Shown in pieces: positions 1 to 15,315 of a stretch of 64,000 nucleotides of DNA. The stretch is from an uncultured Eubacteriales bacterium. Its GTDB lineage: Bacteria > Bacillota > Clostridia > Oscillospirales > CAG-272. The stretch covers positions 7,751-71,750 of the forward strand of contig CAKRTQ010000012.1 of assembly GCA_934402395.1 (NCBI GenBank), read 5' to 3'. The position numbers and the translations under genes were made by a program. The notes beneath the pieces are model-generated. The model was given only the letters and a program-made list of their open reading frames with translations, ran no database searches and was not told the origin of the DNA. The stretch's first letter is position 1; each line of letters begins with the position of its first letter.

Positions 1-2
1 CC

Positions 3-233
3 ATGCTGGCAAACTCCGAGCTTGTGGTCATGCTGAATCAGGCGGCAACCGACCGCGAAGAGCTGGCAAGTCTGATGGGAATTTCGGATTTACAGAGGGG
101 GTATATCACGAATGTAGATGCAGGACACGGGCTTGTCAAGATCGGTGGGGCGTTGGTGCCTTTCGTAAACAAGGTGCCGAAGGATACCAAACGCTATTCC
201 TTGATGACGACCCGATTCAATGAAAACTTGTAA
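3..233 (+). CDS. C-terminal end of a VirB4-like conjugative-transfer ATPase (gene continues upstream of the window)
   Basis: The frame is open to the window edge. The tail ...GALVPFVNKVPKDTKRYSLMTTR resembles C-termini of Firmicutes ICE/Tn916-class VirB4-like ATPases (recognised from memory only). Confidence 0.5.
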   Translation: MLANSELVVMLNQAATDREELASLMGISDLQRGYITNVDAGHGLVKIGGALVPFVNKVPKDTKRYSLMTTRFNENL

Positions 234-375
234 GGTTAATTGATACAGCGATATTTGAGGCAAATAAACGGCTCGTTAAAGGGGTATAATATTGTGAATA
301 AAGAAAATATACCCCGATAACTTGACAAAACGATGCTTTTATGGTATACTGTTATCGGAAACGGAGGGTGTTATT

Positions 376-1626
376 ATGCGTCAAAATTATAGCGAAAACC
401 TGTTTCGCAGAGAAAAATATCTCGGTAAACTGCGCGGCTTTTATCATGAAGGGGAAATTATCAAGGTCATAACCGGTGTCAGAAGATGCGGTAAATCTTC
501 CATCATGAAAATGATTATCGCCGAGATGATTGCGCAGGGCGTTGCCGAAGATCATATTCTTTACTTTCACTTGGATAAGAGACCGTATGCAGGAGTCAAA
601 AAGCCGGAAGAGTTGGATAAGCTGATTGAAGAAAACAGTCATGTAGAAGGCATGAAATACCTGTTCATTGACGAAATTCAGAATGTCAGGGATTTTGAAA
701 CTGTTATCAATTCGTGGAGAGAGGAAGGGGATTTCTCTATATTTCTGACTGGCTCCAATTCTTATCTTCTGAGCGGAGAGCTTGCGACCAAGCTGACCGG
801 ACGGTATCTGGAATTCAACATTCTCCCCTTGACTTTGGACGAATATGTCGGTATCAAGCGCTTTTTCGGGAAGTCTATTCCGACCGACCCACAGACGCTT
901 CTTTCGGAATATATTCTGGAAGGTGGATTTCCGTATGCCGCTAAACTGGATACGCAGGCAGACAGGAGAGCTTATGTAACGGGATTAATTGACGAGATAT
1001 TCCAAAAAGATATCAGCAGAAGGGTGAAAATTAAAAACAGAGCTGTATTTGATGCGGTCATGAAGTATATCATCAATAATTTTGGCTCTACCACGAGTAT
1101 TGATAATATTGTGGAGGAATTCCAAAAGAAACGCGTGTCGGTCAAGCGGGAAACCGTGAGCCGATATATCAAAGCATTGGAAAGTGCTAAAATTATATCG
1201 GAATGTGACAGGTTCGATATGAAATCCAAGAAATCGCTTCGCGGAGAAAAGAAATACTATCTTTCCGATCTGTCTTTCTATTTTGCGATGAATACGGATA
1301 ACAGAATCAACTACGGACCGGCTCTTGAAAATATTGTTTACAACTATGCTTTCGGCAAGGGCTACAGAATCAGTGTCGGAAGAATCGGAAAGCTGGAGTG
1401 TGATTTTATTCTCCGTGATGACCAACTGAATTATGCGTATGTTCAGGTCGCATACACGATATTGGAGAGCAAAGCAACAGAGGACAGAGAGTACAGAAGT
1501 CTTGAAGCGATTACGTGGGATAATTATCCACGATATATCATGACAACCGATAAAATGATACAGCATAGGAACGGAATCCGACACGAGAATATTGTTGACT
1601 TTATCATGAATGACAAAACATTTTGA
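376..1626 (+). CDS. AAA+ ATPase with DUF4143-type C-terminal domain (COG1373-like)
   Basis: GGAGGG SD lies 7 nt before the ATG at 376. Walker A is GVRRCGKSS and Walker B is LFIDEIQ. Length and C-terminal pattern are typical of the family. Confidence 0.8.
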   Translation: MRQNYSENLFRREKYLGKLRGFYHEGEIIKVITGVRRCGKSSIMKMIIAEMIAQGVAEDHILYFHLDKRPYAGVKKPEELDKLIEENSHVEGMKYLFIDEIQNVRDFETVINSWREEGDFSIFLTGSNSYLLSGELATKLTGRYLEFNILPLTLDEYVGIKRFFGKSIPTDPQTLLSEYILEGGFPYAAKLDTQADRRAYVTGLIDEIFQKDISRRVKIKNRAVFDAVMKYIINNFGSTTSIDNIVEEFQKKRVSVKRETVSRYIKALESAKIISECDRFDMKSKKSLRGEKKYYLSDLSFYFAMNTDNRINYGPALENIVYNYAFGKGYRISVGRIGKLECDFILRDDQLNYAYVQVAYTILESKATEDREYRSLEAITWDNYPRYIMTTDKMIQHRNGIRHENIVDFIMNDKTF

Positions 1627-1641
1627 AAATAATGCGACCGG

Positions 1642-1674
1642 AAAAGGGCAGGTGGAAAAGACCTGTCCTTTTTT
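1642..1674 (+). terminator. Rho-independent terminator
   Basis: GGGCAGGT-loop-ACCTGTCC stem followed by TTTTTT, directly after the stop at 1626. Confidence 0.7.
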
Positions 1675-1821
1675 ATGCCTAAAAGGACGAAGAAGAAATG
1701 AAAATAAAGACAAGAGAATCCCTGAGAACCATAAAAACCTTTGACCGGGCGAAAACGCTCGGTCAAAAGGTTAAAAATGGGGCAGGGGAGATAAAAGAGT
1801 ATCGCTGTATATGCCGTCAAG

Positions 1822-1986
1822 ATGAATCGGACAGAAGATGTCGTGACCTTTGACGAAGCGAAAGCTGAGGTTTTGAAAGAGGTTTATCGCAGTCTGAATC
1901 GTATGGACATTCACACGGAGCAAATCACGGTGAAAGAAACGCACCTTGAAACACAGGAAGGCGGAAGCGTTGTTCCGGTTGAGTAG
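1822..1986 (+). CDS. small hypothetical protein (54 aa), conjugative-element-type small ORF
   Basis: ATG-to-TAG ORF MNRTEDVVTFDEAKAEVLKEVYRSLNRMDIHTEQ..., below the ORF-track cutoff. No clear SD. Confidence 0.3.
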   Translation: MNRTEDVVTFDEAKAEVLKEVYRSLNRMDIHTEQITVKETHLETQEGGSVVPVE

Positions 1987-1992
1987 GAGGTT

Positions 1993-2139
1993 TTGAAAAT
2001 CTATTTGTATATTGACACAGTTCCTTTAACCGCTGAAGAAGCGGCGAACCTCTACGACTTTGATACGAAGCAAAGGGAACAGCTTGGAGAATTGCTTTCC
2101 GATAAGAATAAAGAGATGTGGGGTAGTATGCTGTCATAG
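1993..2139 (+). CDS. small hypothetical protein (about 44-48 aa; start uncertain)
   Basis: Open frame ...YIDTVPLTAEEAANLYDFDTKQREQLGELLSDKNKEMW after AGGAGG (1985-1990). Only TTG/ATT starts are available. Confidence 0.25.
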   Translation: MKIYLYIDTVPLTAEEAANLYDFDTKQREQLGELLSDKNKEMWGSMLS

Positions 2140-2250
2140 GTGTTAAGCAGTCCAAACTATGAAATGGATAATGCGATAACAAAAAAGACGACTTTTGAGG
2201 TCGCCCTTTTTTTGAATATAGAATTTGAATTATAGAAAGGTTAAAATGTA

Positions 2251-2721
2251 TCAGGCTATATTGCCGTATATGTTACAGCCGATTGAAACATCTATATCAT
2301 ATGTATTGGTTGTTATGAAAAGAACTTTCCTCTTATATACAGCAGTACCATACGCTATATTGTCTGAATAGCTGTTTTCATGAGCGGACAATGACCAAGA
2401 CTTTTCATAAATAACAGACGAGTAAGTGGAGTTTGTGCAAACAGCAGATACCCCTTCATTTACTTTAAAGGTTCCTGTTAATGTGTATGTCCATTGCAGA
2501 TTATCTTTAGAGTCATAAAGATTGACTATTTTTTCGCCCAACTTTGTATAGGTCGTGGACTTTGTGGATTTTGTGGATTTTGTAATTGGAGACTGCCTAA
2601 TTACGGTTACCATATAGCTGCCATCTTCAAAATGTACCGTAGTGGAACTGGTTTTATAAGTTTCTACTGAAATGTGTTCAGGACTTTCGGCACATATTGT
2701 GTTAAGCGGAGCAAAAGTCAA
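2251..2721 (-). CDS. beta-rich hypothetical protein, probably a 5'-truncated fragment
   Basis: Only a TTG start is present, with an in-frame TGA immediately upstream. No SD and no signal peptide. Contains a KSTKSTKST repeat. Its start abuts head-to-head the truncated start of the Rhs gene. Confidence 0.35.
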   Translation of the reverse strand: MTFAPLNTICAESPEHISVETYKTSSTTVHFEDGSYMVTVIRQSPITKSTKSTKSTTYTKLGEKIVNLYDSKDNLQWTYTLTGTFKVNEGVSAVCTNSTYSSVIYEKSWSLSAHENSYSDNIAYGTAVYKRKVLFITTNTYDIDVSIGCNIYGNIA

Positions 2722-4884
2722 TCATATGTGTATAACACAAACAACGGAAAACTTGACATACTGACGTACGGAAACGGTCACAAATGTAAATACATTTATG
2801 ATGAACTTGACAGAATAAAAGAAATACAGTATAATACAAGTAGCACTTCGACCTCATTTACAACTGCATATACATATGAATATGATGCAAATGGGAATGT
2901 AAGCAAAATAACCGACATGCTGAGCAGTCAGGTGACGGTTTTTTGGTACGACAGTAAGGGAAAGCTACGCAATTACTACGTCAACAAACGTAGCGATGAG
3001 AATGACCAGTCCGCGCTGTATTTTTACTATGACAACGAGGGCAGACCGGTAAAGCGCGAGTATTACAGAGATTACAATGCGTCCGGAGTGACGAATGCAA
3101 TTGCGGAAACCGGTATCGTATATAATGATGACGGCTCGGTCGCGAGTATAGGCACCGAAGTGCAGGGTATGATCGTTTCGGCTGAATATTCATACGACGA
3201 TCTTTGGCGTACATCCGCAACTGTGTGGAAGATAGGCTCCTACGATGCCAATCCCCCTGCAACGATCACGCAAAGCTACACCTACTCAAACTATGAGTAT
3301 GAGTATGATGGGGATGAAGAGAGCGAGATCTGCGATACTCCGCTCATACACTCGGTAACCACATCAAAGCCCGACGGCAGCGAAACACTTTATTATACCT
3401 ACGACGAACGCGGGAACATAATGTTGATCCGCCGCGGGGTGAACGATATAGTGTGCCGTTATGCATACGATTCTCTCGGACAGCTCATCCGCGAAGACAA
3501 CAGCGTACTTGGCAAAACGTACGTATGGACATATGATAAAGCGGGCAATATTCGCAGTCGTGAGACATATGCGTATACTACCGGTAATCTCGATTCGGTC
3601 CAGAATACGGTAATATACGGTTATGATACCGGCAGCTGGGGCGATCTTCTCATATCGTTCAACGGTCAGAGCATAGCATATGACGGCATAGGCAACCCCG
3701 GGACATGGAACGGCAGCGCCCTTACATGGCAGGGCAGACGTCTCATGTCTTACGGTTCGAATACTTATACCTATAATGCAGACGGTATAAGAACGAGCAA
3801 GACCGTAAACGGGGTAGAGCATATATATCATCTCTCCGGAACGCAGATTCTCAGTGAAGAGTGGACAGAGGGCAGTGTTCAGCACATACTGATATATGTC
3901 TACGATGCCTCGGGACAGCCGATAGGGATGTCGCACTATGAAAACGGTGAGCAGCGCGGGACATATGTCTTTGTGAAGAATATTCAGGGCGATATCACCG
4001 GCATATATGACGATGAAGGCACTTGCCTCGTCACGTATACATACGATGCCTGGGGCAATGTTACCGTATCGTATTCTAACGGCGGTGCCTCAACTGCGGC
4101 AAAATATAACCCGTTCCGTTACAGAGGTTATTACTACGATAACGAGACCAGCCTCTATTACCTTAACAGCAGATATTACGATCCCAATGTAGGCAGATTC
4201 CTTAATGCGGATGGTTCTGTAAACGCCAACGGCGACCTTATCGGATTCAATATGTTCGCTTATTGCGGAAATAATCCGGTGATGTGGCGTGACCCGTCCG
4301 GTACGTATTGTGTTAGACTAGCTGACGACATGACGATGAGTCTGATCAACTTGTCGTTTGCGCTTGCTTGCATTGGAACCGGTTATTTGGCATGGACCAG
4401 TGCGACCGGAAAATTATCTCGTTCTTCGACCAGTTTCCCGATTGCTGATATTGATGTAATAGATGTAGTCAAGCCTGTTTGGCGTAGTAAAAATAGGGAA
4501 GTTGCCATAGCTGATGAGGCGGAGAAGGTCGCAACCGATGTTTCGACTGCTCAACATGGGAAATATTACGGAGCACATGCATTGGACAAAAATAGTGCCC
4601 TAATACCATTAACATCGCCAATGACGCTCGAAGAGGCTATTGCTTGGATAGATACGGTGTGTATTATGAGAGGTTATGGCGACGTAAGCATGGATAGTAC
4701 TCATATATGGGGTGTATATACTGTTAATCAGTCTGATGCGCGGATACTTGCGAGTGCTGTCGGGGCTGCTCCGTATGTCGATGGACCGCATAGTGCTGCT
4801 GGCTATATGCATTACCACATTAAAGGAAAAAAACTCAGGGGATTCAAGAGTTTTCATGTATGGTTTTCAATGAGGGGGATATAA
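2674..4884 (+). CDS. Rhs/YD-repeat polymorphic toxin, 5'-truncated, with unique C-terminal toxin domain (CT1)
   Basis: Many YD repeats (YxYDxxGN/R). The Rhs core-end motif is RYYDPNVGRFLNADG...FAYCGNNPVMWRDPSGT, followed by ~190 unique residues. YD-repeat similarity starts abruptly near 2715, and no N-terminal trafficking region is present. Confidence 0.85.
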   Translation: MFRTFGTYCVKRSKSQSYVYNTNNGKLDILTYGNGHKCKYIYDELDRIKEIQYNTSSTSTSFTTAYTYEYDANGNVSKITDMLSSQVTVFWYDSKGKLRNYYVNKRSDENDQSALYFYYDNEGRPVKREYYRDYNASGVTNAIAETGIVYNDDGSVASIGTEVQGMIVSAEYSYDDLWRTSATVWKIGSYDANPPATITQSYTYSNYEYEYDGDEESEICDTPLIHSVTTSKPDGSETLYYTYDERGNIMLIRRGVNDIVCRYAYDSLGQLIREDNSVLGKTYVWTYDKAGNIRSRETYAYTTGNLDSVQNTVIYGYDTGSWGDLLISFNGQSIAYDGIGNPGTWNGSALTWQGRRLMSYGSNTYTYNADGIRTSKTVNGVEHIYHLSGTQILSEEWTEGSVQHILIYVYDASGQPIGMSHYENGEQRGTYVFVKNIQGDITGIYDDEGTCLVTYTYDAWGNVTVSYSNGGASTAAKYNPFRYRGYYYDNETSLYYLNSRYYDPNVGRFLNADGSVNANGDLIGFNMFAYCGNNPVMWRDPSGTYCVRLADDMTMSLINLSFALACIGTGYLAWTSATGKLSRSSTSFPIADIDVIDVVKPVWRSKNREVAIADEAEKVATDVSTAQHGKYYGAHALDKNSALIPLTSPMTLEEAIAWIDTVCIMRGYGDVSMDSTHIWGVYTVNQSDARILASAVGAAPYVDGPHSAAGYMHYHIKGKKLRGFKSFHVWFSMRGI
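3595..4284 (+). repeat. Rhs core repeat, copy 1 (approximate bounds)
   Basis: Direct DNA repeat with 5605-6302. Long identical runs include ggcgatcttctcatatcgttcaacggtcagagcatagcatatgacggcataggcaaccccgggacatggaacgg. Confidence 0.85.
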
Positions 4885-5423
4885 TGAAAGAATATTATTT
4901 TATAACTTACGACTATGTAGATGGTGCACATATTTATTACGATATAAAAGGTGACGATCTGCAAGAGCTTATAAACGTTTGCGTCAAATATTGTACTGTG
5001 CTCAGCTTAACATACTGGCCGGGGCAGGAAAGCGTACGTGAAAAATTTCGCAAGTATGAGCTTAGCGAAGAGGAATCGCGCCCGTTTGCCGCAGTTGCAA
5101 CATGGCGGGCGTACAACGATGACTTTACAACAGTCAATATTTTTTACAGGATATGCCCGGAGCTTATTGATGAATTTCTGAAAATGAGCGATGGTCGCTT
5201 AACCGGGTGGTGCAGGTTTGAAGATGAGAACTATCCTGAGGATCCGTCATTTTTCCGTGAGGATGCAAGTGTATTTTTCAATCCGGTGGTTCATGAAGGA
5301 CTTTACTTTCTTCATCCAAGAGACGATGAGGACGTAAGCAACATAGTTTGTCATCCGGGGTGGTGTGTCAACACACGTGGCAATAAGTTACTCACGATAG
5401 ATTTCGATAAATTGAAACCATGA
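4884..5423 (+). CDS. putative cognate immunity protein for CT1
   Basis: The ATG overlaps the Rhs stop (TAATG at 4882-4886), with a GAGGGGG SD inside the toxin 3' end. It is a 179-aa acidic cytosolic protein. The call is positional. Confidence 0.6.
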   Translation: MKEYYFITYDYVDGAHIYYDIKGDDLQELINVCVKYCTVLSLTYWPGQESVREKFRKYELSEEESRPFAAVATWRAYNDDFTTVNIFYRICPELIDEFLKMSDGRLTGWCRFEDENYPEDPSFFREDASVFFNPVVHEGLYFLHPRDDEDVSNIVCHPGWCVNTRGNKLLTIDFDKLKP

Positions 5424-5554
5424 TCAGCAATATTGTTTGTGCTTGAACAAGCAAAACCGTAAATGGAGTGAAGCAAATGTATCACCTCATAGGTACACGT
5501 ATACCTGAAAAGGGCGAACCGTTGGTGGTTATAAGACTCTAACTTTCATTCCCC

Positions 5555-5581
5555 CCCCGCCGTGCCGACGGCACGGCGGGG
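5555..5581. repeat. GC-rich perfect hairpin at the 5' boundary of orphan Rhs cassette 2
   Basis: CCCCGCCGTGCC-GAC-GGCACGGCGGGG: 12-bp stem, 3-nt loop. Confidence 0.8.
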
Positions 5582-6860
5582 ATGGACAAGGCATCACAAC
5601 ATCGGTTCGGTACAGAATATGGTAATATACGGTTACGATACCGGTAACTGGGGCGATCTTCTCATATCGTTCAACGGTCAGAGCATAGCATATGACGGCA
5701 TAGGCAACCCCGGGACATGGAACGGAAGCGCCCTTACATGGCAGGGCAGACGGCTCATGTCGTACGGCTCTAATACTTATACCTACAATGCCGACGGTAT
5801 AAGAACGAGCAAGACCGTAAACGGAGTAGAGCATATATATCACCTTTCGGGAACGCAGATACTTGACGAGGAATGGACCGAAGGAAACATCCACCATCTC
5901 ATGGTGTATGTTTACGATGCATCCGGTCAGCCGATAGGTATAAGTCATTATACATACAACGGAACGCTCGTATCTGAAAATGACTATCTGCTCGTTTCCA
6001 ACATCCAGGGCGACATAATCGGTATCTACGACTCCACCAGGACCCGCGTTGTAACGTATGTCTATGATGCATGGGGGCGTATACTCTCTACCACCGGGAC
6101 CGGCGCTAATACCATCGGCGTATATAACCCGTTCAGATATCGTGGTTACTACTACGATACCGAAACCAGCCTCTACTACCTCAACAGCAGATACTACGAT
6201 CCCAACGTAGGCAGATTCCTTAATGCAGACGACTACATAAACGCCAACGGCGACCTTATCGGATTCAATATGTTCGCTTATTGCGGCAATAATCCGGTGA
6301 TGCTTACTGATTATTATGGATACAGCGCTTATAAGTGCGGTCACAATAACAATCCGGATAAATGCAGATATTGCAAGAAAGAGCGCGAAATTGCTCAAAT
6401 GGCGGGAGTCCGGTATTCGCAGAGTAGAATTCAAGAAGATGCCCAAGTTGATGATGATACACCTATAAACTATAATGGTGCATATTCACAAGCTCAAACT
6501 ATAACATCATTGACAACTAACGCTTTTGCATTATTGCTTACGGTAACATCTCAAGGTGTTGATACTATAGCATCTATGTATGTGACCGGGTTTGGATATC
6601 TTGTAACAGCACCAATAAATATAGTGCAAACATGGAACAATCCGAATTTAGGTACCAAAGGAAAGGTGCTGCTAACTACATATGATGTGATGGTTGCTGC
6701 GAGCGGTGTTGGCATGGTATTCGGTATGGCGAACTGGTGGAATGTTACAGGTTGGGCGGCGTTGGGGATTTCTGTTGTTTATACAGTAGTCACGTATGCT
6801 GTCGAGTATAAATTACAAGAGTATTTAGAGAGAAGGTACTACAATGAATACGCACGATAA
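5562..6860 (+). pseudogene. orphan Rhs C-terminal cassette 2 (core fragment plus distinct hydrophobic toxin tip CT2), no credible start
   Basis: From ~5605 it is near-identical at DNA level to 3595-4284 of the main gene. The only start is a GTG inside the hairpin. After NNPVM the C-terminus diverges and contains several hydrophobic segments. Confidence 0.7.
5605..6302 (+). repeat. Rhs core repeat, copy 2 (approximate bounds)
   Basis: See copy 1. The central part is more diverged. Confidence 0.85.
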
Positions 6861-7173
6861 GACTGTGGGCTTTTTTGACAAAGTATCACACATTATTGCA
6901 TATTCATACATAGCACATTTTGTATGTGGACTTTTGGCATACGATGGACGAAATTGGTGGACTGAATATAGTGTTACTTGGTATCGTGGCGCGATCAACT
7001 TCTTTCTATCATCGTTTGCGATAGCAATCAATAGCATTTTGGTGTGCATTTTCATGAAAAAAGCAGCACCGCCTGTGAAATCCCCCAAAATCATAGTCAA
7101 CTGGGTCGTTGCAGTTGTACCAATTGTTCTTGCATGGCTGTCGATAATACTTGATTTGGTGCTTATACAGTAG
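6844..7173 (+). CDS. putative membrane immunity protein for CT2
   Basis: Overlaps the cassette 3' end, with AGAAGG SD. It is 109 aa with ~3 predicted TM segments. The call is positional. Confidence 0.5.
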   Translation: MNTHDKTVGFFDKVSHIIAYSYIAHFVCGLLAYDGRNWWTEYSVTWYRGAINFFLSSFAIAINSILVCIFMKKAAPPVKSPKIIVNWVVAVVPIVLAWLSIILDLVLIQ

Positions 7174-7362
7174 TTATACATCAGATAAGTAGCAGTATTC
7201 ATTATGACTTATATGATATTGAATGGTATGGTTGCGAAAATGGCGGGGTCTGTAGAAATAACATATGTTTACCCCAATGCAATCAAAGGTCGATGCAACA
7301 TTCCGTTTTTATGATATGCGATTAAAAAGCAATACCTTCTCTTTCCCTAAAAGAGGTTTGCT

Positions 7363-7395
7363 CCCCGTAGCTGTGCCAATGGCACGGCTACGGGG
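7363..7395. repeat. GC-rich hairpin at the 5' boundary of orphan Rhs cassette 3
   Basis: CCCCGTAGCTGTGCC-AAT-GGCACGGCTACGGGG: 15-bp stem including one G.U. It shares the CCCCG..GTGCC/GGCAC..CGGGGAT frame with the hairpin at 5555-5581. Confidence 0.8.
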
Positions 7396-7484
7396 ATTGG
7401 GGATGGGCAGGGTGTCGCATACGTCAGCGCAGGATCGGTAGAATATGACCGTATCAGCAGTGTAACGAATGCGCTTGTACGTAA

Positions 7485-8372
7485 GGACACATCTCTAATA
7501 CTTATACCTACAATGCCGACGGTATAAGAACGAGCAAGACTGTCTATGGTGTCAAACACATATATCATCTCTCCGGAACGCAGATACTCAGTGAAGAGTG
7601 GACGGAGGACAGAGTTCAGCACATACTGATATTTGTCTATGACGATTCGGGACAGCCGATAGGAATGTCGCACTTTGAAGATGAAGTCAAAAACGGTGAC
7701 TACCTGTTTGCGAAGAACGTCCAGGGTGATATTACCGCTGTTTATGATGCAAATGGTACATGCCTTGTAACGTATACCTACGATGCGTTGGGCAACACCA
7801 GAGTGAGGTACTCAAACGGCGGTGCCTCAACTGCGGCAAGATATAACCCGTTCAGATATCGCGGTTACTATTACGATACCGAAACGAGCCTTTACTACCT
7901 CAACAGCAGGTATTATGATCCTGCAGTCGGCAGATTCCTTAATGCGGATGGTTCTGTAAACGCCAACGGCGACCTTATCGGATTCAATATGTTCGCGTAT
8001 TGCGGAAACAACCCTGTAAACAGAGTTGACCGCACGGGACAATTTTGGAGTGAAATTTGGGAGTTTGCCAAAATAGCCGTTGCCGAAATTGGAAAAGCCA
8101 TGGAAGTTATGTCTCCCGCTTACGCTGGGTGTGGTGGAGTAGCTGTAGCTGATGGGCCTCTTCCTTTCGGAGATATTATTGCAGCAGCAGTCATAGTATT
8201 GTTAACCGCAGGTGCTATAGGATATGGAATTTATCAAGCAGTACAGGCTCCAGCTATTTCTGTTCCAAAAGTTGAAGAAAAAGATGAAGCAATACCTGCA
8301 CCTCCGCCTACTCCAACAGTAATTTATAGATATAGCGGAACGTATGATTTTAATTGCCGCCTCGACATCTGA
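7485..8372 (+). pseudogene. orphan Rhs C-terminal cassette 3 (start-less; degenerate and frameshifted upstream remnant; tip CT3 probably truncated)
   Basis: The frame opens after TAA at 7482-7484 and the first ATG is at 7665. NTYTYNADGIRTSKTV...RYYDPAVGRFLNADG...CGNNPVNRVDRTGQ is homologous to the main gene. A YD-like remnant at 7414-7480 is in another frame. Confidence 0.65.
7497..8017 (+). repeat. Rhs core repeat, copy 3 (shorter, approximate bounds)
   Basis: Homology begins at aatacttatacctacaatgccgacggtataagaacgagcaag. Confidence 0.8.
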
Positions 8373-8650
8373 CAAGTATAATGACAAGTTCTTTATGTTA
8401 GCTAAAGGAATGCTTACTGTTCAGCAGTTTATTGAACAGGAGAATGCGTAATTAGGGCAAAAATAAACACAGCAGGGAGAGTGCTCCGGATGGCATACGC
8501 TATTCTGAACGCTCTCCCGATTTTTTGATTTCAACGTTCCAAATCTAAAAAATGAATTTAACGGTAGGCGTTACATTTAAATGATAAGATGGTGGGTGCC
8601 GTTAGGGGACAAACCGCGGGATACTGAAATTCGTTTTTCAATGTTTTGCT

Positions 8651-8930
8651 GTGTGAAAAAAGTATTGGAGGTAACGCGGTCTGCGCAGACGAACAGAAAA
8701 TAATCAAAAGTCAAAAATCCTGATGTTCGGTGCGAAAAGACGAGCTCCAAAGCGTTTTTGAGTATGACAGCGCTGCGGAAGGAACAAAAATCTAAAAAAG
8801 CAAGTTCCTGTGCGAAAAGACGGGGGTCTGAGCGTTTTTCAATATGACAGCACCGGGAGGAGCAAAAGCCAAAACTAAAGGTTGGTGCAAAAAGAAACCA
8901 CGTATTGTGATATAATACGATCTGACAGAC
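8651..8930 (+). repeat. degenerate tandem repeat, about four copies of a ~75-80-nt unit upstream of rtcB
   Basis: Units start at about 8651, 8730, 8810 and 8885. Each has the form GTG(C/T)(G/A)AAAA(A)GA...(T)CTG/ATGACAG(A/C). Copies 2 and 3 are the most similar: GTGCGAAAAGACG..GCGTTTTT.A.TATGACAGC. Confidence 0.6.
8908..8916 (+). promoter_or_regulatory. extended -10 promoter element (TGATATAAT) for rtcB
   Basis: TGnTATAAT consensus lies ~100 nt upstream of the rtcB ATG. No good -35 was found. Confidence 0.5.
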
Positions 8931-9018
8931 GGGACCTGCCGAAGGCGGGACACCGACTTCGATTTTACGGGTTCAATTCCCGGCGATGCCTTGCTATCAG
9001 AATGAAAGGAGCGGCACA

Positions 9019-10227
9019 ATGATTGAAATCAAAGGAAAGGTAAATACAGCTATCTGTTATGCAGCGGTTGTAGAGGACGAAGCGATCGAACAGATCCGCA
9101 GAATGTGTGACTATGATTTCACAGCAGGATCTCAAATACGGATCATGCCCGATGTACATGCCGGAAAAGGCTGTACGATCGGCACCACTATGACGATCAC
9201 TGATAAAGCGGTTCCCAATATCGTTGGTGTCGATATCGGTTGTGGTATGTATACTGTTGAGCTGGGTAAGGTGGATGTTGATTTTGAAAAAGTCGATGCT
9301 GCCGCTCATTATATTCCCAGCGGAAGAGATGTTTGGGAAGGGCGCATGGAGCGCTTTGACCTGACCGGGCTTCGCTGCTATAGAAACTTGAAACAGGCAA
9401 AGCGCTTGGAGAGGAGCCTGGGGACACTGGGCGGAGGAAACCATTTTATCGAGATTGATACTGCTTCGGATGGCACAAAGTATTTGGTGATCCATTCCGG
9501 CAGTCGTAACCTGGGCAAGCAGGTGGCGGAGTTCTATCAGTCTTTAGCTATCGATTTGAATGCCGGTAAGGCAGATTATTTCGAGCGTCGGGATGAGCTG
9601 ATCCGTACATATAAGGAGCAGGGCCGCAGGGCTGAGATCCAGACCGCATTGAAGGCTATGGAGAAGGAATGGGCGGCAAAAGAGCCGACGATCCCCGCAG
9701 ACCTTTGCTATCTGTACGGAACCTACTTGGATGACTACCTCCACGATGTAGAGATCTGCCAGCAATTTGCAAGGCGCAGCCGTGAAAGAATGGCGGAGAT
9801 CCTTTTGGAAAAGACCGGAATGACTGCGATCTCTTCCTTCCACACCATCCACAATTATATTGATACGAAGGAAATGATCCTCCGCAAAGGCTCTATTGCG
9901 GCTCATTACGGAGAACTTGTCCTGATTCCCATCAATATGCGGGACGGCAGTGTGTTGGCTCGCGGCAAAGGGAATCCGGAATGGAATTATTCAGCCCCGC
10001 ATGGAGCCGGCCGTCTTATGTCTCGTGCAAAGGCACGCGAAACGTTGGATTTAGAGGTGTATAAGAAGACAATGGAGGGTATCTACACAACGTCGGTCAA
10101 TGAAGCCACCATCGATGAAGCACCCATGGCTTACAAGTCGCTTGAAGACATTATCGATGTCATCAGAGAGTCTGTCGATGTGATCGAGTTACTAAAACCT
10201 ATTTACAATTTTAAGGCATCTGAGTGA
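9019..10227 (+). CDS. rtcB: RNA 3'-phosphate/5'-OH ligase RtcB
   Basis: AAAGGAG SD. Family motifs present: IMPDVHAGKGCTIG, GGGNHFIEID, HSGSRNLG, IPINMRDGS, APHGAGR. Length 402 aa. Confidence 0.9.
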   Translation: MIEIKGKVNTAICYAAVVEDEAIEQIRRMCDYDFTAGSQIRIMPDVHAGKGCTIGTTMTITDKAVPNIVGVDIGCGMYTVELGKVDVDFEKVDAAAHYIPSGRDVWEGRMERFDLTGLRCYRNLKQAKRLERSLGTLGGGNHFIEIDTASDGTKYLVIHSGSRNLGKQVAEFYQSLAIDLNAGKADYFERRDELIRTYKEQGRRAEIQTALKAMEKEWAAKEPTIPADLCYLYGTYLDDYLHDVEICQQFARRSRERMAEILLEKTGMTAISSFHTIHNYIDTKEMILRKGSIAAHYGELVLIPINMRDGSVLARGKGNPEWNYSAPHGAGRLMSRAKARETLDLEVYKKTMEGIYTTSVNEATIDEAPMAYKSLEDIIDVIRESVDVIELLKPIYNFKASE

Positions 10228-10264
10228 TAAAACGCTCCTGCGCCGTCTGATTGGAGGAGTTGAA

Positions 10265-10459
10265 ATGTTGAATCGTTTGAAAAATGAGGCGAATATCGCT
10301 TGCACAGAAAATGGCGCAGTTACCAACGCAAGAACACTTAGCATATCTCTGAGTTCGGGCGTTACGATGATCCGGTACAGTCACGCAAGGGAAACCGAGT
10401 GTGGCGGTGTAGGAATAAACGTTTGCATCCTTGGATCCGGTGAGGCTTTATTTATATAA
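10265..10459 (+). pseudogene. short ORF whose first ~25 aa look like the N-terminus of a TROVE/DUF2828-type protein; possible gene remnant
   Basis: Strong GGAGGAG SD lies 5 nt before the ATG. MLNRLKNEANIACTENGAVTNARTLS carries the TENGA-type N-terminal motif, after which similarity is lost in all frames. 64 aa. Confidence 0.3.
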
Positions 10460-10773
10460 ATCCGATGAACGGAAATAATGAAGTCGCACAATATACAGGT
10501 GTGGATCGGCTGATCGGGTTTACATCAATGAAGTATGGACCGGCGGTCGGAGGGAAGTCCCTCTGCGGTCCCGGGCTGAGAAGCTCGGAGGCGGAATGCC
10601 GGTACTGTCAGACGCCCCGATAATTAAATTCACACTGCTTTACACGGTATAGTGTTTGCCGGATGATCCAAAGTCCCGCAATACTATAAATAGAACACGA
10701 TTTGTACGGCTTATTCGCTAATGGGTACTTTAGATTTAAAGAGAATCGGTCTTATGAGTCGTGTTCACTGTAG

Positions 10774-10839
10774 AACGCAGCTAGTAAAGCTTATTTCGCC
10801 GTATGGCTTTTGATCAGATTCAGTTTTACGATCCGCGTT
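10774..10839 (+). ncRNA. candidate structured RNA module 1 (CAGCUAG-helix-CUUAUU type)
   Basis: Outer helix AACGC (10774-78)/GCGTT (10835-39). Conserved AGCTA internal loop. Inner helix GTAAAG (10784-89)/TTTTAC (10824-29). Confidence 0.4.
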
Positions 10840-10845
10840 CGGTAG

Positions 10846-10905
10846 CAGCTAGTGGCGCTTACTGCTTTTAAAGCGTTCTATCAGTTAGAAAAGTGCCGCG
10901 ATTTC
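10846..10905 (+). ncRNA. candidate structured RNA module 2
   Basis: CAGCTAG (10846-52). Inner helix GTGGCG (10852-57)/TGCCGC (10894-99) covaries with modules 1 and 3. The outer helix is not obvious. Confidence 0.35.
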
Positions 10906-10913
10906 GCAAAAAA

Positions 10914-11040
10914 GCAAACAGCTAGCCGGGCTTACTTCTTCAGTAGGATCCGATCGCAGAGGTTCGATTCCTCTCGCTCCAACGGAGTGTAGCTCAGTGG
11001 CAGAGCGTCGGAATGAAATCAGTCCGGCAATTCAGTTTGC
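10914..11040 (+). ncRNA. candidate Y-RNA-like (YrlA-like) RNA: long-range stem enclosing a circularly permuted tRNA-like domain
   Basis: Outer helix GCAAAC/GTTTGC (10914-19/11035-40). Inner helix GCCGGG/TCCGGC (10925-30/11023-28). Cloverleaf core at 10949-11012 has T arm AGAGG-TTCGATT-CCTCT, a loop-closed acceptor CGCTCC-AAC-GGAGTG, TA, D arm GCTC-AGTGGCA-GAGC, and anticodon-stem equivalent TCCGA/TCGGA. Confidence 0.6.
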
Positions 11041-11066
11041 GCATTGTCTTATGGGGAGGAGAAAAA

Positions 11067-13106
11067 ATGTTCGATCAGTATTTCCGGAAATTTTTGTTTT
11101 CCAAGGGGACTTTAGTGAGCAGTGCAACGAGTCCGGATGCATTTGCGGCTCGTTTTGCCCTTGCCAATATGTTCAATATCAGCATTACGCGCGGTCAGCA
11201 GTATGCACATGAGGATATGATCTCTTTTGTTGCTGATATGCTCGGAGAATGCGTTCCGCAGCCTTTTTACCGTAATTTCCCCAAATCCGTAAGAGAACTT
11301 GCCCCCAATCAACTGTTGTTTGATCAGTTGTGCCATTATAGCATTACATACGGACTCGGTAACTTTGCGGAAGCCGGCTACTCTCTCTTTGAGGAAGAGT
11401 TTGAGAGACTTGCTTTTAAGGAAAACGTTGAGATCAAGAAGTTCATAATTCTCACGGAATCGGAGGCGCATGAACGGCTTGCCGAATATGTTGAGGATAT
11501 GCTGAAGGGGACGCGCCCTTTGAGCGATGTGCAGTATGAGCTTGTAAAGACTTATATCGATAAGTGCAGCTACGAGATCAAGAACTGTGCATGCAAGGAT
11601 ACTGCCATACGGCTTTTGCTCGATACCGAAAATGCCAAGTATGCAAGGTTCCTTGCCCTTTCGGATGTTATAAAGCTTGTTGATACCATGAACTACGAGG
11701 GTTATAACAACACGAATATCAAGAAACTGAACCTTCGCAATCAGGACCGCAGATTCATTGCCAGAGTGATCAACGCTATCTTTGATGGCGGTCGCATAAA
11801 TGTCAGAGAGTGTTTTGAAAAGAAAGCGGTCTGGTGCGGGTTGCTTCACCATATTCACTATCACCCCAGGATTCCCGAAGCCGAAAGATTTGTTGCGCTT
11901 ATGCGGGGCAATGAAAACTGGTCGGTGTACTCCGGGTTTGAGCGTGCAATGACGGCTCGTGATATCAGAGCGGCAGTTACCTGCCTTCTTGAAGGCAAGG
12001 GATCCGGTGCGCTTTTCAGACATCTCAACTATATTCTCAGCAGGTGCACGGATGAGGAGGATGTGGCATTTGTTATGGAATCGCTCCATACCAAGAATGC
12101 TGTCGTGCTCATTCAGCTGATCATGCAATATGCGAATTATGTAGCCGATGCCGACCGCAAATTTAAGTTTACACGTTATAATAAGCTCAAGATACATACG
12201 GAAACTGACGAGGAGCAGTCCAAGAGGAAGTCTGCGCTTCCTTCCGAACGGGTGGATGAGCTTTCGGCGGTTATGTTTGCGAATCTCAGGAAGCTTCTCG
12301 CCGGCAGGCTCGGCAAAGTATATGTTGCTTCCGATATGTATAATATTGCGCTTCCTATTCAGGAAAACACCTCTAACGGCGGATATGGCGTTCTTCCCAA
12401 GGGTTCCAGACTCCACATCGAAGAAGGTAAAAAGATCCGCGCATTTACCTATTGGGAAAAGGTAAATGATATTGACCTGAGTGCCATCGGAATTACCGAA
12501 GACGGAAGGCAGGTAGAGTTTTCCTGGAGGAGCATGTTCAAATTGCAGTCCAATGAGATCGCTTTTTCCGGCGATGAAACCGCCGGTTATGGCGGTGGAT
12601 CCGAGTATTTTGACGTTGATGTAGCTCTTTTTAAGAAAAACCACCCCGAAATCAAGTACATGGTTTTCTGCAACAATGTTTTTTCGCGTGCTTACTTTTC
12701 AAAATGCCTGTGCAAAGCCGGTTATATGCTTCGTGATGTTCAGGATTCCGGAGAGGTGTTTGAGCCCAAAACGGTAAAGTCTTCCTTTGTAATCAATTGC
12801 GACAGTACGTTCGCATATCTGTTCGGGATCGATCTTGAAAAGAATGATTTCGTTTGGCTGAATATGTCATTTGGCAACAACGCCACCGTGGCAGGCAGCA
12901 CTTCCATGAAGTTTCTTATTGATTACTTCAAAATCACTTCTGTTATTAACATGGGTATGCTGTTTGAAATGCTTGCGACCGAGATCGTGGAGTCTCCCGC
13001 GAACGCTGACGTAGTGGTGTCCGATGAAGAGCTTGACGGGTGTGAGAATGCCGAGGTGATCAGATCCTGCGATTTTGAGAAGGTAATGGCATTGCTCAGC
13101 CGATGA
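11067..13106 (+). CDS. 679-aa protein: divergent TROVE/Ro60-like helical region fused to a TerD-fold C-terminal domain (tentative)
   Basis: GGGGAGGAG SD. TROVE-like strings: FEKKAVWCGLLHHIHYHP, and GSGALFRHLNYILSR (compare the Ro ALLRNL segment). The C-terminus LPKGSRLHIEEG..WEKVNDIDLSAIGITEDGRQVEFSW...FSGDETAGYGGGSEYFDVDV...IKYMVFCNNVFS matches the TerD pattern (DLDxSA...SGDNxTGEGxGDDE...). The coding call is secure; the function is inferred. Confidence 0.85.
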   Translation: MFDQYFRKFLFSKGTLVSSATSPDAFAARFALANMFNISITRGQQYAHEDMISFVADMLGECVPQPFYRNFPKSVRELAPNQLLFDQLCHYSITYGLGNFAEAGYSLFEEEFERLAFKENVEIKKFIILTESEAHERLAEYVEDMLKGTRPLSDVQYELVKTYIDKCSYEIKNCACKDTAIRLLLDTENAKYARFLALSDVIKLVDTMNYEGYNNTNIKKLNLRNQDRRFIARVINAIFDGGRINVRECFEKKAVWCGLLHHIHYHPRIPEAERFVALMRGNENWSVYSGFERAMTARDIRAAVTCLLEGKGSGALFRHLNYILSRCTDEEDVAFVMESLHTKNAVVLIQLIMQYANYVADADRKFKFTRYNKLKIHTETDEEQSKRKSALPSERVDELSAVMFANLRKLLAGRLGKVYVASDMYNIALPIQENTSNGGYGVLPKGSRLHIEEGKKIRAFTYWEKVNDIDLSAIGITEDGRQVEFSWRSMFKLQSNEIAFSGDETAGYGGGSEYFDVDVALFKKNHPEIKYMVFCNNVFSRAYFSKCLCKAGYMLRDVQDSGEVFEPKTVKSSFVINCDSTFAYLFGIDLEKNDFVWLNMSFGNNATVAGSTSMKFLIDYFKITSVINMGMLFEMLATEIVESPANADVVVSDEELDGCENAEVIRSCDFEKVMALLSR

Positions 13107-13207
13107 AAGCCTTCTGCTTGACGAAAAGCAGGTGCGACTGCATCCGGGGAATAAACAGGGCTTGGGTTCAGAACATACCCGGTAGCTGAAAAAACAAATA
13201 TGCATCT

Positions 13208-13248
13208 GCGGGGTACTAAAAACTCAAAATGAGTTTTTAGTACCCCGC
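13208..13248. terminator. long perfect hairpin (19-bp stem) of the AAAAACTCA/TGAGTTTTT-apex family
   Basis: GCGGGGTACTAAAAACTCA-AAA-TGAGTTTTTAGTACCCCGC. Confidence 0.6.
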
Positions 13249-13254
13249 AAAAAT

Positions 13255-13295
13255 AGCGGCTGTAAAAAAACTCATTTGAGTTTTTTACGGCCGCT
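13255..13295 (+). terminator. second hairpin of the same family, followed by a T-tract; terminator of the rtcB-TROVE unit
   Basis: AGCGGCTGTAAAAAAACTC-ATTT-GAGTTTTTTACGGCCGCT followed by ATTTTTTG. Confidence 0.65.
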
Positions 13296-13471
13296 ATTTT
13301 TTGACTGTGATCCGAAAAGCCCGGAGCTTATGGACTGTTCGGTTTTTCTGTGAAATGATCGTTTTTTCCGATCTTTACCCAACCGCGCGATGCTTTTGCG
13401 TGTCATAAAAACAGAACGGCACGCTGTAAAGTGCCGCATATCAACCTTGCCGGGCAGGTCAACGTTCAACA

Positions 13472-13834
13472 ATGAAAGATTTAAAATTATACAGCTCAGA
13501 CTTTTATTCATACACAAAAATGCTTTTGAGCGGGAACACATTCCGTATCATGATATCCAAGCGTCTGCTGATGCGTCCGCTGATCCCCGCGTGGGTATTC
13601 CTCTTTTTCATTATGATGATCCCCGGCAAGGTGTTTTTCTGGATAGCCGGATTTCCGTGTTTAGGGCTGTATGCCGTTTTTTTGCTCGGTAACTACCCGT
13701 ATTGGGAAGCTTGCAGCGTAAAGAAGCTGCCTTTTGTTTTGTGGAATGCGATCTGGGTCCTGTTTTTGAAGCTGATGACGATACCGGTGCTGAATTTGTT
13801 GGAGGTGATCATAAAGTGGACTTTTTATATATGA
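13472..13834 (+). CDS. small hydrophobic membrane protein (hypothetical)
   Basis: 120 aa with 3 hydrophobic segments. The 3' end overlaps the start of the next gene. SD is weak. Confidence 0.4.
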   Translation: MKDLKLYSSDFYSYTKMLLSGNTFRIMISKRLLMRPLIPAWVFLFFIMMIPGKVFFWIAGFPCLGLYAVFLLGNYPYWEACSVKKLPFVLWNAIWVLFLKLMTIPVLNLLEVIIKWTFYI

Positions 13835-15315
13835 ATTCACGTGAGCCTGCCGTTGAGCTGGACGTTCAAAAAGAGATCGTCTCCGGGGATGCTTTTTTCG
13901 GTAAGGCAAAGGAGTATGTCACTGGCGACCGTGAGACTTTGCTTTACCGGCAGGAATTTTTCCGCGATGTGCTTCAAATAAGTGAATTGCCGGAATTTCT
14001 GACGGCACTTCATGCGAAGCTCAACGAAATTTCACCCTTGATGCGGGGAGGGCAGGGCGCGGCGGGACGCGAGGAGAAGCTGCGCGATCTGCTTTATCCG
14101 GTCGTTTATATCGAGCTTGTGGAGCTAATTTGCAGATATCTGGAGCCGATCGCCGACAGATTGACCGCGCGGTCCTTGCTGGCGCTTTATCACATGGCGG
14201 ACAACGAAAAGCGGTCCGCGGAGTACGGCAGGATCGGCGAATATTATATGAAAAACAGCGCCCGGTTGCGTTCCGTACACAGCGTTACCGTGGGCATAAA
14301 TCTGACACCCATGTTTGAGCCTAAAGAGGCGGGGATCGTTGCGCTCAATTCGGAAGAATTCAGCTCGGGCGACTTTTGGGATCGGGTGATACGGATGGAT
14401 CTCGCCAAGGACGATTTTCATTGTATTGCGCCTCTGACGGTCATTGACAAAAAGCTCGGATATCAGGACAGTCAGCGCATGAATCATGCGCTGCTGAAGG
14501 GACTGGATGCCGTTGTCGGTGATGGTCTGCGGCATTGCAGCAAGAGCATAGAAAAATATCTGAAGGATGCATTGAAAAAATTCTATGAGTGGTCCGGGTC
14601 TCTCGGCTTTGTGACAGAAGCGGTCAAACGCATCACGGAGCTGAAGGAGAAGAGAATACCGCTTGCCTTTCCGACCGTCAGCGACCGCTTCTTGTTTGAT
14701 GTGGATTCCCTGTATGACGATTCATTGTGCCGTAAAAAGGACAAAAAAGACATCGTGCCGAATACTGTGCGTCTGGAACCGGATGTATGCTGTTATATTT
14801 TGACGGGACCGAACAGCGGCGGAAAATCGGTATTTCTGAACTCGCTTGCAGCCGCTCAGTATTATTTTCAACTGGGGATGCCGATCCCCGCGAAGGCGGC
14901 GTCGCTCCCGATATGCGATGCCGTTTTCAAAATCTCGGTCGAGGAGCAGGCAAATGCGGATCAGGTCGGCAGATTCGAGAAGGAGTGCATAACTCTTTCC
15001 GGCGTGCTGAAAAAATTCACTCCCCGCAGTCTGGCACTGATAGACGAAGCATTCACCTCCACCTCGGCAGAGGAAGCTGTGCCGATCGCCGCGAATTTTA
15101 TACGTGAGATATGCCGCATTGGGGGAAAATGCCTGTTTGTGACACATTATCATGAATTGGACGGATCGCAGCCGTCGGTGCGGCAATGCGGAGGGGCGGT
15201 AGACTATCTGCACACGGAAAGCGGCGGAGAACGCAGGACGTACACAGTTCTGCCCGGCAGCTCCGATCCGCACAGCGATGCGCATAACATTGCAAAAAAA
15301 TACGGTTTGCTGTGA
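13816..15315 (+). CDS. MutS-family ATPase domain protein (MutS domain V; no Smr or mismatch-binding domain seen)
   Basis: GGAGGTG SD lies 8 nt before the GTG at 13816. Walker A is LTGPNSGGKS, Walker B is LALIDEAFTSTS, and THYHEL is present. Confidence 0.8.
   Translation: MDFLYMNSREPAVELDVQKEIVSGDAFFGKAKEYVTGDRETLLYRQEFFRDVLQISELPEFLTALHAKLNEISPLMRGGQGAAGREEKLRDLLYPVVYIELVELICRYLEPIADRLTARSLLALYHMADNEKRSAEYGRIGEYYMKNSARLRSVHSVTVGINLTPMFEPKEAGIVALNSEEFSSGDFWDRVIRMDLAKDDFHCIAPLTVIDKKLGYQDSQRMNHALLKGLDAVVGDGLRHCSKSIEKYLKDALKKFYEWSGSLGFVTEAVKRITELKEKRIPLAFPTVSDRFLFDVDSLYDDSLCRKKDKKDIVPNTVRLEPDVCCYILTGPNSGGKSVFLNSLAAAQYYFQLGMPIPAKAASLPICDAVFKISVEEQANADQVGRFEKECITLSGVLKKFTPRSLALIDEAFTSTSAEEAVPIAANFIREICRIGGKCLFVTHYHELDGSQPSVRQCGGAVDYLHTESGGERRTYTVLPGSSDPHSDAHNIAKKYGLL

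Follow-up and report, generated by a model that had tools for sequence, protein, structure and literature searches.

Results

A protein gene preceded by tandem structured RNAs

We analyzed a 64,000-nucleotide (nt) window of contig CAKRTQ010000012.1 (positions 7,751 to 71,750 of the forward strand; assembly GCA_934402395.1) from an uncultured Eubacteriales bacterium of the CAG-272 lineage; coordinates without a locus name refer to this window. An initial annotation, made from the sequence alone, had proposed that the gene at 11067-13106 encodes a TROVE-like helical domain, as in Ro60, fused to a TerD-fold domain. Upstream lies a gene for the RNA ligase RtcB, and the 840 nt between the RtcB gene and the open reading frame (ORF) of interest hold three tandem structured RNAs that share a common stem/internal loop/stem module (Table 1). 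Here, we describe the gene and these RNAs, which may well act together as a ribonucleoprotein (RNP) in the manner of bacterial Ro60 (Rsr) and its Y RNAs.

Table 1. Coordinates of the cassette, its parts, and neighboring features. R1 is the covariance model of the RNAs (see text).
Feature	Position	Strand	Evidence or remark
RtcB RNA ligase gene, upstream neighbor	8986..10227	+	Pfam PF01139, E 1e-53
Possible degenerate fourth RNA copy (weak)	10499..10635	+	R1 14.1 bits, E 0.046, filters off
Short-form RNA copy 1 (P1/AGCUAG loop/P2/UUAUUUC/short hairpin)	10771..10842	+	R1 29.5 bits, E 1.8e-5
Short-form RNA copy 2 (GCAGCUAGUGGCGCUUACUGC ... CGAUUUCGC)	10843..10909	+	R1 23.8 bits, E 3.2e-4
Long-form RNA	10912..11042	+	R1 91.4 bits, E 3e-19
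Permuted tRNA-like module (T arm AGAGGUUCGAUUCCUCU, acceptor-like hairpin, D arm GUAGCUCAGUGGCAGAGC)	10951..11012	+	Rfam YrlA match
Ribosome-binding site GGGGAGGAG	11054..11062	+	Read off the sequence; 5-13 nt before ATG, 12 nt past long-form RNA
N-terminal mostly helical domain, residues 1-440	11067..12386	+	AlphaFold2 models, conservation; no Pfam or PDB match
TerD-like beta-sandwich domain, residues 445-612	12399..12902	+	hhalign vs TerZ/A/D/E/F; AlphaFold2 strands 448-601
Small C-terminal alpha/beta region, residues 613-679 and stop codon	12903..13106	+	AlphaFold2 secondary structure
537-amino-acid protein with MutS domain V (ATPase) only	13702-15315	+	E 1.6e-21; directly downstream of the gene
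AAA_14/DUF4143 ATPase	322-1626	+	PADLOC candidate defense family PDC-S01, E 1.8e-131
RHS-repeat ORFs	2674-4884 and 7665-8372	+	RHS repeats
tRNA-array loci	L041 1071-3195, 6243-6955; L042 3127-3836; L048 2694-3176; L090 126-2477; L092 710-1610		

The plus-strand ORF spans 11013..13106, within which the gene itself begins at the methionine codon at 11067 (MFDQYF...) and encodes 679 amino acids (aa). This start is judged correct because homologs of 677 to 685 aa align from the same methionine with 99 to 100% coverage, public gene calls for the same contigs are exactly 679 aa long, a ribosome-binding site precedes the ATG, and positions 11013-11042 belong to a structured RNA. The gene and the start chosen for it in the initial annotation were thus both borne out, and each motif quoted there was found in the translation, most on invariant columns of a 32-sequence alignment: SKGTLVSSATSPDAF (residues 12-26), LPKGSRLHI (443-451), YWEKVNDIDLSA (462-473), GRQVEF (480-485), SGDETAGYGGGSEYFDVD (501-518), KYMVFCNNVF (530-539), GYMLRD (552-557), and FVWLN (595-599). 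Residues invariant in the 32 homologs include W463, D468, D470, S501, G502, D503, G510, S512, E513, and D516, together with N537, G552, R556, W597, and N599.

All three RNAs carry the module cAGCUAg...UUUACUUC // AAU...RAUAUCg. The first copy has no tRNA-like domain, and its module is the same as that of 52 short-form RNAs found elsewhere. The long-form RNA consists of a closing stem P1 (GCAAAC/GUUUGC), an internal loop (5'-AGCUA / 3'-AAUUCA), a second stem P2 (GCCGGGCUU/AGUCCGGC), and a conserved ACUUC followed by a tRNA-like domain closed by P3. Inside this domain, positions 10951-11012 present the permuted order of T arm, acceptor-like hairpin, and D arm that is the design of YrlA, and the Rfam YrlA model (RF02553) matches them with 35 bits (E 1e-5 to 2.6e-6; model positions 23-87 of 114). 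This module is no tRNA gene, since ARAGORN found neither a tRNA nor a transfer-messenger RNA (tmRNA) in the window. The long-form RNA ends 12 nt ahead of the ribosome-binding site, and no terminator-like site was found between the RNAs and the gene (the promoter and terminator scan was uninformative overall). Farther upstream, the weak fourth candidate comprises a stem, a GGCUGA loop, a stem, UUUACAUC, and a T-arm-like hairpin.

Three other ORFs were rejected as genes. ORF 10265-10459 (plus strand, 64 aa, in the gap between RtcB and the array) is called in public assemblies and has no conserved counterpart; it is unlikely to be a gene, or it may belong to a transcribed leader. ORF 10997-11212 overlaps both the long-form RNA and the true gene start. 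The 510-aa antisense ORF 11112-12644 likewise has no conserved counterpart, and antisense ORFs cluster across loci merely as shadows of the gene.

The RNAs form a covarying family linked to the gene

With a strict pattern for the permuted module, matches were recovered at 36 of 78 related loci, on the gene strand and about 60 to 550 nt upstream (mostly 95 to 300). An alignment of 33 of these RNAs shows a 6-bp P1, the internal loop 5'-AGCUA / 3'-(A/G)AUAUC, an 8-bp P2 that ends in U-A pairs, the invariant ACUUC, and a short P3 that closes the tRNA-like domain. The stems covary strongly (96.9% of cells paired, with compensatory change at 26 of 33 pairs; slid controls, about 40%), and so do the helices of the tRNA-like module. 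In a larger set of 100 RNAs, 96.3% of cells were paired, the stems again covary, and the module cAGCUAg-N5-uUUACUUC (5') / AAU-N5-c(R)AUAUCg (3') is near invariant.

We searched the window and 82 loci with R1, a covariance model of these RNAs, at a cutoff of E < 0.01. R1 returned 118 matches in the 83 sources, 117 of them on the gene strand. In 69 of 79 loci, the gene has at least one RNA directly upstream, with a median gap of 36 nt between the last RNA and the ATG, so that most loci have the nearby same-strand RNA gene that characterizes Ro60 systems; in three further loci (L043, L052, and L059), an RNA lies just downstream of the gene instead. The tRNA-like long form is present in 40 of the 69 loci with upstream RNAs, and usually one RNA per array bears the permuted T-arm/hairpin/D-arm domain of the YrlA type. 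About half of the R1 matches are of a short form (about 60 to 90 nt) that keeps P1, the loop, P2, and UUACUUC, with the tRNA-like domain swapped for a short loop or hairpin. The strand bias is also evident from the simple motif AGCUA-N6-9-UYAYUKY, with 143 occurrences on the gene strand against 4 on the other.

Two sets had been kept out of the building of R1, namely IMG/VR contigs and the Rhodococcus phage Weasels2. Eighteen IMG/VR viral contigs (18 to 233 kb, most above 60 kb) encode homologs with 35 to 51% identity. Here, R1 gave 47 matches at 16 of the 18 loci, all on the strand of the gene and no more than 600 nt upstream, in 2 to 6 tandem copies. Weasels2 encodes a homolog of 25.7% identity within a tRNA cluster; just downstream of that gene lies a full-length RNA (69 bits, E 2e-13) in which the loop reads AUUAAG and UUUACUUC is retained, along with weaker short-form candidates of 12 to 19 bits. 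RNA and gene thus stay linked across Lachnospiraceae, large phages, and an actinophage, even where protein identity has dropped to about 26%. On the Bacillus mycoides plasmid p210 (L094 1878-2111), three tandem weak R1 matches precede the homolog, with CUAUGA or ACUAUA loops in place of AGCUAG and UUCCUUC or UUUCUUC in place of UUACUUC; these are probably a diverged form of the partner RNA.

A helical domain joined to a remote TerD homolog

An AlphaFold2 model of the full protein (mean predicted local distance difference test [pLDDT] score of 81.6; predicted template modeling score of 0.78) is mostly helical to about residue 440, as the initial annotation had predicted, and continues with an all-beta stretch (448-601) and a small alpha/beta tail; confidence is low for residues 62-120. 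In the helical domain, the best-conserved motifs are PFYRxFPxSVRxL..DQLxHYxxTYG (residues 64-96), CFEKKxxWCGLLHHIHY (249-265), and KGSGALLRxLNYIxSRC (311-327). Residues 62-120 (nt 11250-11426; PFYRGFPxSVRELxxDQLLFDQLxHYxxTYG) are among the best-conserved stretches, with many invariant residues, and at the same time the least confident part of both AlphaFold2 models (pLDDT 33-50); this segment may become ordered only on binding a partner, possibly RNA. The C-terminal region (residues 613-679) includes the conserved D669 and A647 and matched nothing in any library searched. Searches of Pfam, PADLOC, and PDB sequences with the protein, as a single sequence and as profiles, yielded nothing useful, and no enzymatic effector domain was recognizable with Pfam and NCBIfam.

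The all-beta domain was compared with an alignment of TerZ, TerA, TerD, TerE, and TerF from a Klebsiella plasmid (the TerD query sequence was 100% identical to the plasmid gene). The family profile aligned with hhalign at a probability of 92.3% (E 5.6e-7; 103 columns), and a superfamily profile, to which divergent relatives had been added, reached 96.6% (E 5.4e-10), so the TerD-like pattern is above chance. The alignment pairs the motifs listed in the initial annotation: NDIDLS falls opposite FDLDAS, and SGDETAGYGGGSEYFDVD falls opposite the acidic loop GDN(R/L)TGEGDGDDE of TerD in remodeled form. The invariant acidic positions of the domain are D468, D470, D503, E513, and D516.

These profile comparisons support a remote TerD homolog, visible at the profile-profile level only, and in that sense the proposed relation of this domain to TerD holds. 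Direct searches did not reach TerD. The Pfam model PF02342 has no match in the window protein, even at E <= 1, and matches 1 of 22 full-length family members (E 0.097) and 2 of 21 isolated domains (E 0.019); a profile search of PDB sequences did not find TerD, and a Foldseek search of PDB with the full-length model returned no TerD structure among the 50 best matches. Some family members nevertheless carry the NCBI name "TerD family protein." The likeness to the TerD family extends over about 105 to 135 profile columns of an all-beta domain, including the LSKG strand, the GLGWD...DLDAS strands, and the GDNxTGEGDGDDE calcium loop, whose acidic residues are partly kept. The window domain differs in being too divergent for the Pfam model, in sitting behind a 440-aa helical domain, in its acidic loop, which is reshaped to SGDETxGYxGGSEYFDxD, and in having no ter operon partners (none of terB, terC, terZ, and terA was found nearby).

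The N-terminal TROVE domain of the initial annotation was not confirmed. The protein matched neither TROVE nor Ro60 in searches of Pfam, NCBIfam, and PDB sequences, and PF05731 plus PF25045 were present in 120 of 120 genuine Ro60 orthologs, compared with any Pfam domain in 0 of 120 family members. Against a set of 125 TROVE proteins (5 bacterial proteins and then 120 more), queried at three depths in all, hhalign gave the family a probability of 1 to 2% (P = 0.03 to 0.065) and the superfamily profile a probability of 5 to 8% (P = 0.004 to 0.008; 150 to 205 collinear columns). Reversed profiles scored about 15, compared with an observed 32.1, and block-shuffled TROVE profiles reached the observed score in 1 of 40 cases. 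TROVE homology of the helical domain is still possible at the sequence level because the weak alignment (window residues 191-419 opposite Ro60 108-371) is collinear and pairs the most conserved motifs of the family with those of Ro60: W256..LLHHIH264..P with W177..LLRLSH187LKP, and GALLRNL with TALLRNL. The invariant H264 thereby falls opposite Ro60 H187, and loss of Y RNA binding has been reported for the H187S substitution (PMC11277228). The ENGA-type N-terminal motif proposed in the initial annotation lies outside the aligned region in every one of these comparisons.

Structure comparison pointed the same way as the profile libraries. Foldseek searches of PDB with the full-length and the separate N-domain model placed no Ro60 among the 50 best matches and gave generic TPR, 14-3-3, and designed repeat proteins (best E 0.06 to 0.2; template modeling [TM] score <= 0.2), not the HEAT-repeat toroid of Ro60 (1YVP, 2NVO, and 9NEN) that had been anticipated; since no match was significant, no TROVE fold is claimed. 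The human Ro60 reference sequence corresponds to 9NEN chain A (1,224 bits against PDB). The C-terminal domain was also negative against the Ro60 vWA region (hhalign probability of 0.3%), and in place of a vWA domain with its MIDAS motif (DxSxS), the protein has the TerD-like domain. By profile, by fold, and by vWA domain, it therefore falls outside the Ro60/TROVE family.

Relatives in Clostridia, plasmids, and large phages

The family is large, with more than 1,080 close homologs, 2,333 representative clusters at E <= 0.001, and at least 2,300 clusters at 50% identity. The GTDB species genomes contain 228 stretches that encode a relative, the best 80 of which come mostly from Lachnospiraceae, Oscillospiraceae, and other Clostridia from rumen and gut. 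The phyletic survey that the initial annotation had called for thus places the relatives in rumen and gut Clostridia and in large phages.

The RING family MXAN_6230/SCO0854 (NF041916; Prok-RING_4) comprises true relatives that share the distal helical region and the TerD-like domain. Window residues 286-605 match NF041916 positions 388-710 (E 2.8e-26); this partial match is the only one in NCBIfam and, with 92 bits against a cutoff of 600, leaves the window protein outside that family. NF041916 relatives differ in carrying a RING finger inserted near residues 130-180, which Pfam does not find in the window protein and which is present as Prok-RING_4 in the Variovorax and Streptomyces relatives, and R1 finds no partner RNAs beside them. 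Full-length homologs with the same domain order are found in phages: PHROG 33734 (E 9e-23 over residues 65-609), the BFVD protein A0A8S5LVH0, H6SUA9 of Campylobacter virus IBB35, and a "cytoplasmic protein" of Lactobacillus phage LpeD. The phage structural homologs (Campylobacter, Lactobacillus, and uncultured phages) align over their full length in Foldseek with TM scores of 0.52 to 0.78. The PHROG and BFVD entries have no assigned function and no annotated RNA partner.

Gene neighborhood

Clustering of flanking ORFs identified RtcB as the sole recurrent protein neighbor, at 6 of about 81 loci (the window, L004, L010, L013, L019, and L062), two of which hold it twice; at this frequency, RtcB adjacency was dropped as a key conserved context. 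Among distant plasmid-borne relatives, both with a RING finger, the Variovorax homolog (L096 1-521) lies divergent from rtcR, and the Streptomyces homolog (L097 5389-6978) adjoins an exoribonuclease with an RNB domain. Such neighbors suggest a tie between RNA repair or decay and the superfamily as a whole, including members beside which no partner RNA was found. Large tRNA arrays surround the cassette in several genomes and phages, with about 30 tRNAs in L041, and on the fecal phage scaffold MT835874 the cassette stands beside a tmRNA and tRNAs. No canonical TROVE gene was found in the window or at any locus examined.

Within the window, the first 14 kb have a lower G+C content (0.43 to 0.47 in 1-14000, against 0.48 to 0.58 in 14001-64000) and hold Rhs fragments, the RtcB gene, the RNA array, and the protein gene; the cassette may lie within a horizontally acquired island. 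The RHS-repeat ORFs probably derive from an Rhs polymorphic toxin locus, as fragments or cassettes, and ORFs 4860-5423 and 5562-6860 have no Pfam match. The MutS domain V gene is also found downstream in same-species contigs and is absent from the other loci. Cyclic di-GMP-I riboswitches occur a few kilobases downstream of the cassette at three loci (L042 6485-6560, L022 6530-6625, and L030 7904-7998) and are probably unrelated neighbors.

Discussion

We propose that the gene and its three (perhaps four) upstream RNAs form one cassette for an RNP whose mode of action resembles that of bacterial Ro60 (Rsr) and its Y RNAs, a reading to which we assign a probability of roughly 60%. The protein would bind the conserved stem-loop module, which would be the counterpart of the Ro60-binding stem of Y RNAs. 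By analogy with YrlA and YrlB, the distal part of the RNA, which varies between a tRNA mimic and a short loop, would serve as effector or tether. The TerD-like domain would replace the vWA/MIDAS domain of Ro60 as the metal- or ligand-binding partner of the helical domain. Such a particle could survey, repair, or protect structured RNAs that have been damaged, tRNAs above all; the location of the cassette within tRNA islands of phages and beside RtcB would be consistent with such a role. The RNAs are probably transcribed together with the gene and then processed. The initial annotation had imagined a Ro60-like function with vWA swapped for TerD, and that part of it gains strong and independent support from the YrlA-type RNAs upstream and the adjoining RtcB gene.

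Bacterial Ro60 systems include the rsr-yrlBA-rtcBA operon of Salmonella and the Rsr/Yrn1/PNPase particle of Deinococcus radiodurans. As in those systems, small structured RNAs lie beside the protein gene, on the same strand and within a few hundred nucleotides; one RNA bears a permuted tRNA-like domain (T arm, acceptor stem, D arm) and others do not, as with YrlA and YrlB; and each RNA has a long closing stem that holds a conserved asymmetric loop. Further parallels are the linkage to RtcB, with rtcR beside one relative, the occurrence in phages as well, and a protein in which a helical domain is followed by a domain of metal-binding type. TerF joins TerD with vWA; in the window protein, the TerD-like domain occupies the place of the vWA domain in Ro60. 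Rsr, YrlA/YrlB, and RtcB are encoded in one operon, with YrlA within 4 kb of Rsr on the same strand and a GNCGAA(N0-1)G motif near its 5' end for Rsr binding (PMC4201824). The differences are equally clear. The window protein is not called TROVE by Pfam, hhalign, or Foldseek, and where Ro60 has vWA/MIDAS, it has a TerD-like beta-sandwich, with an additional small domain at the C terminus. The module of its RNAs, AGCUAG...UUUACUUC // RAUAUCG, differs from GNCGAA(N)G, and the RNAs score below the Rfam threshold for YrlA and form arrays of up to 6 copies. The hosts, finally, center on Clostridia and their large phages.

Several observations weigh against our proposal, in which binding of the RNAs by the protein is suggested by gene linkage and by analogy. 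No match to YrlA at the gathering score of Rfam 15 (69 bits) was found, either in the window or among the 15 loci whose RNAs were best, a shortfall that arises because the Rsr-binding stem of YrlA is unmatched; correspondingly, the GNCGAA(N)G motif is absent from the RNAs, with no GNCGAA in 10912-10950. On the protein side, TROVE homology is not significant (hhalign probability of at most 8%, with the observed score reached by a shuffled profile in 1 of 40 controls), and Foldseek searches of PDB found no Ro60 for either the full or the N-domain model. RtcB linkage is a minority feature. R1 gives weak tandem matches before the homologs of the B. mycoides plasmid and phage LpeD and finds nothing beside the Variovorax, Streptomyces, or Vibrio homologs; given these limits, an RNA partner is established for the clade of Clostridia and phages and for Weasels2, not for the whole superfamily. 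Finally, the RNAs usually lie in the 5' leader, so that a purely cis-regulatory role is possible.

That last point defines the first of three alternatives, in which the RNAs are cis-acting leader elements that control a TerD-family stress protein by sensing tRNA status or through autoregulation by the bound protein. The RNAs do lie mostly in the 5' untranslated region, with the last copy a median of 36 nt from the ATG, and the lack of a terminator-like site before the gene, together with a last RNA 12 nt ahead of the ribosome-binding site, makes autoregulation possible. However, the position downstream of the gene in Weasels2, L043, L052, and L059 speaks against a pure leader, and so does the variation in copy number: the RNAs come as 1 to 6 tandem, independently folding units, each with covarying stems, and a tRNA mimic of the YrlA design has its precedent in trans-acting RNPs. 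Autoregulation and RNP formation can coexist. We regard an exclusively cis-acting function as unlikely.

In a second alternative, the cassette is a phage/host conflict module whose tRNA-like RNAs are decoys or sensors for anticodon nucleases or other tRNA-targeting defenses, and whose protein stabilizes or presents the RNAs or is an effector regulated via a ligand bound by the TerD-like domain. Full-length homologs in large phages (the 18 IMG/VR contigs, Weasels2, LpeD, Campylobacter phages, and WXIN) and the frequent location of cassettes inside tRNA or tmRNA islands are in keeping with this idea, as are the low-G+C segment shared with Rhs fragments and the PADLOC PDC-S01 candidate ATPase in the window and the proposal that TerD domains sense nucleotide-derived signals (PMC7159879, PMC7824862). 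On the other hand, the protein has no PADLOC match and no recognizable enzymatic effector domain, and apart from RtcB there is no conserved neighbor. This alternative contains the same RNP as our proposal and differs in biological role alone; as an account of that role, it has a low probability in our estimate. It is very improbable that the protein is an ordinary tellurite or stress resistance protein of the TerD family and the RNAs mere hitchhikers in mobile tRNA-rich islands, an idea encouraged by the NCBI name "TerD family protein," a BFVD entry "putative tellurium resistant like protein," and the cassettes within tRNA arrays, since the linkage is about 90%, strand specific, fixed in position beside the gene amid otherwise unrelated neighborhoods, and kept to 26% protein identity across phyla and phages, with no terB, terC, terZ, or terA nearby and RNAs that are not tRNA genes (none by ARAGORN).

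Returning to a Ro60-like RNP, we consider the odds about even that the cassette represents a second class of Y-RNA-type RNPs, so far unrecognized, widespread among gut Clostridia and large phages, and characterized by a new recognition module, AGCUAG/UUUACUUC//RAUAUCG, with a protein that is either a TROVE relative diverged past detection, its vWA domain swapped for TerD, or an unrelated convergent fold. The protein architecture itself may already be known, but the RNA partnership left no trace in the literature searched, which did not mention YrlA outside Ro60 systems or TerD together with tRNA-like or Y RNAs. Both the RNA motif and the protein family are missing from Rfam and Pfam at curated thresholds. 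The known range of Y RNAs follows that of Ro60 because bacterial Y RNAs have been sought only next to annotated TROVE proteins; the original YrlA survey was confined to genomes with such annotations (PMC4201824).

Here, RNAs with the tRNA-mimic design of a Y RNA accompany a protein that is not recognized as TROVE by any curated profile. Its family is abundant both in Lachnospiraceae of rumen and gut and in phages as large as about 230 kb. If our reading is correct, the Ro60/Y RNA paradigm would extend to Firmicutes and their phages, the family would offer a natural test case for telling the protein handle of a Y RNA from its effector part, and TerD-like domains, whose biochemical role is still obscure, would gain a concrete RNP context. 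Through RtcB, rtcR, the RNB exoribonuclease, and the phage tRNA islands, a role in tRNA damage and repair during phage-host conflict becomes testable, and cultured hosts exist.

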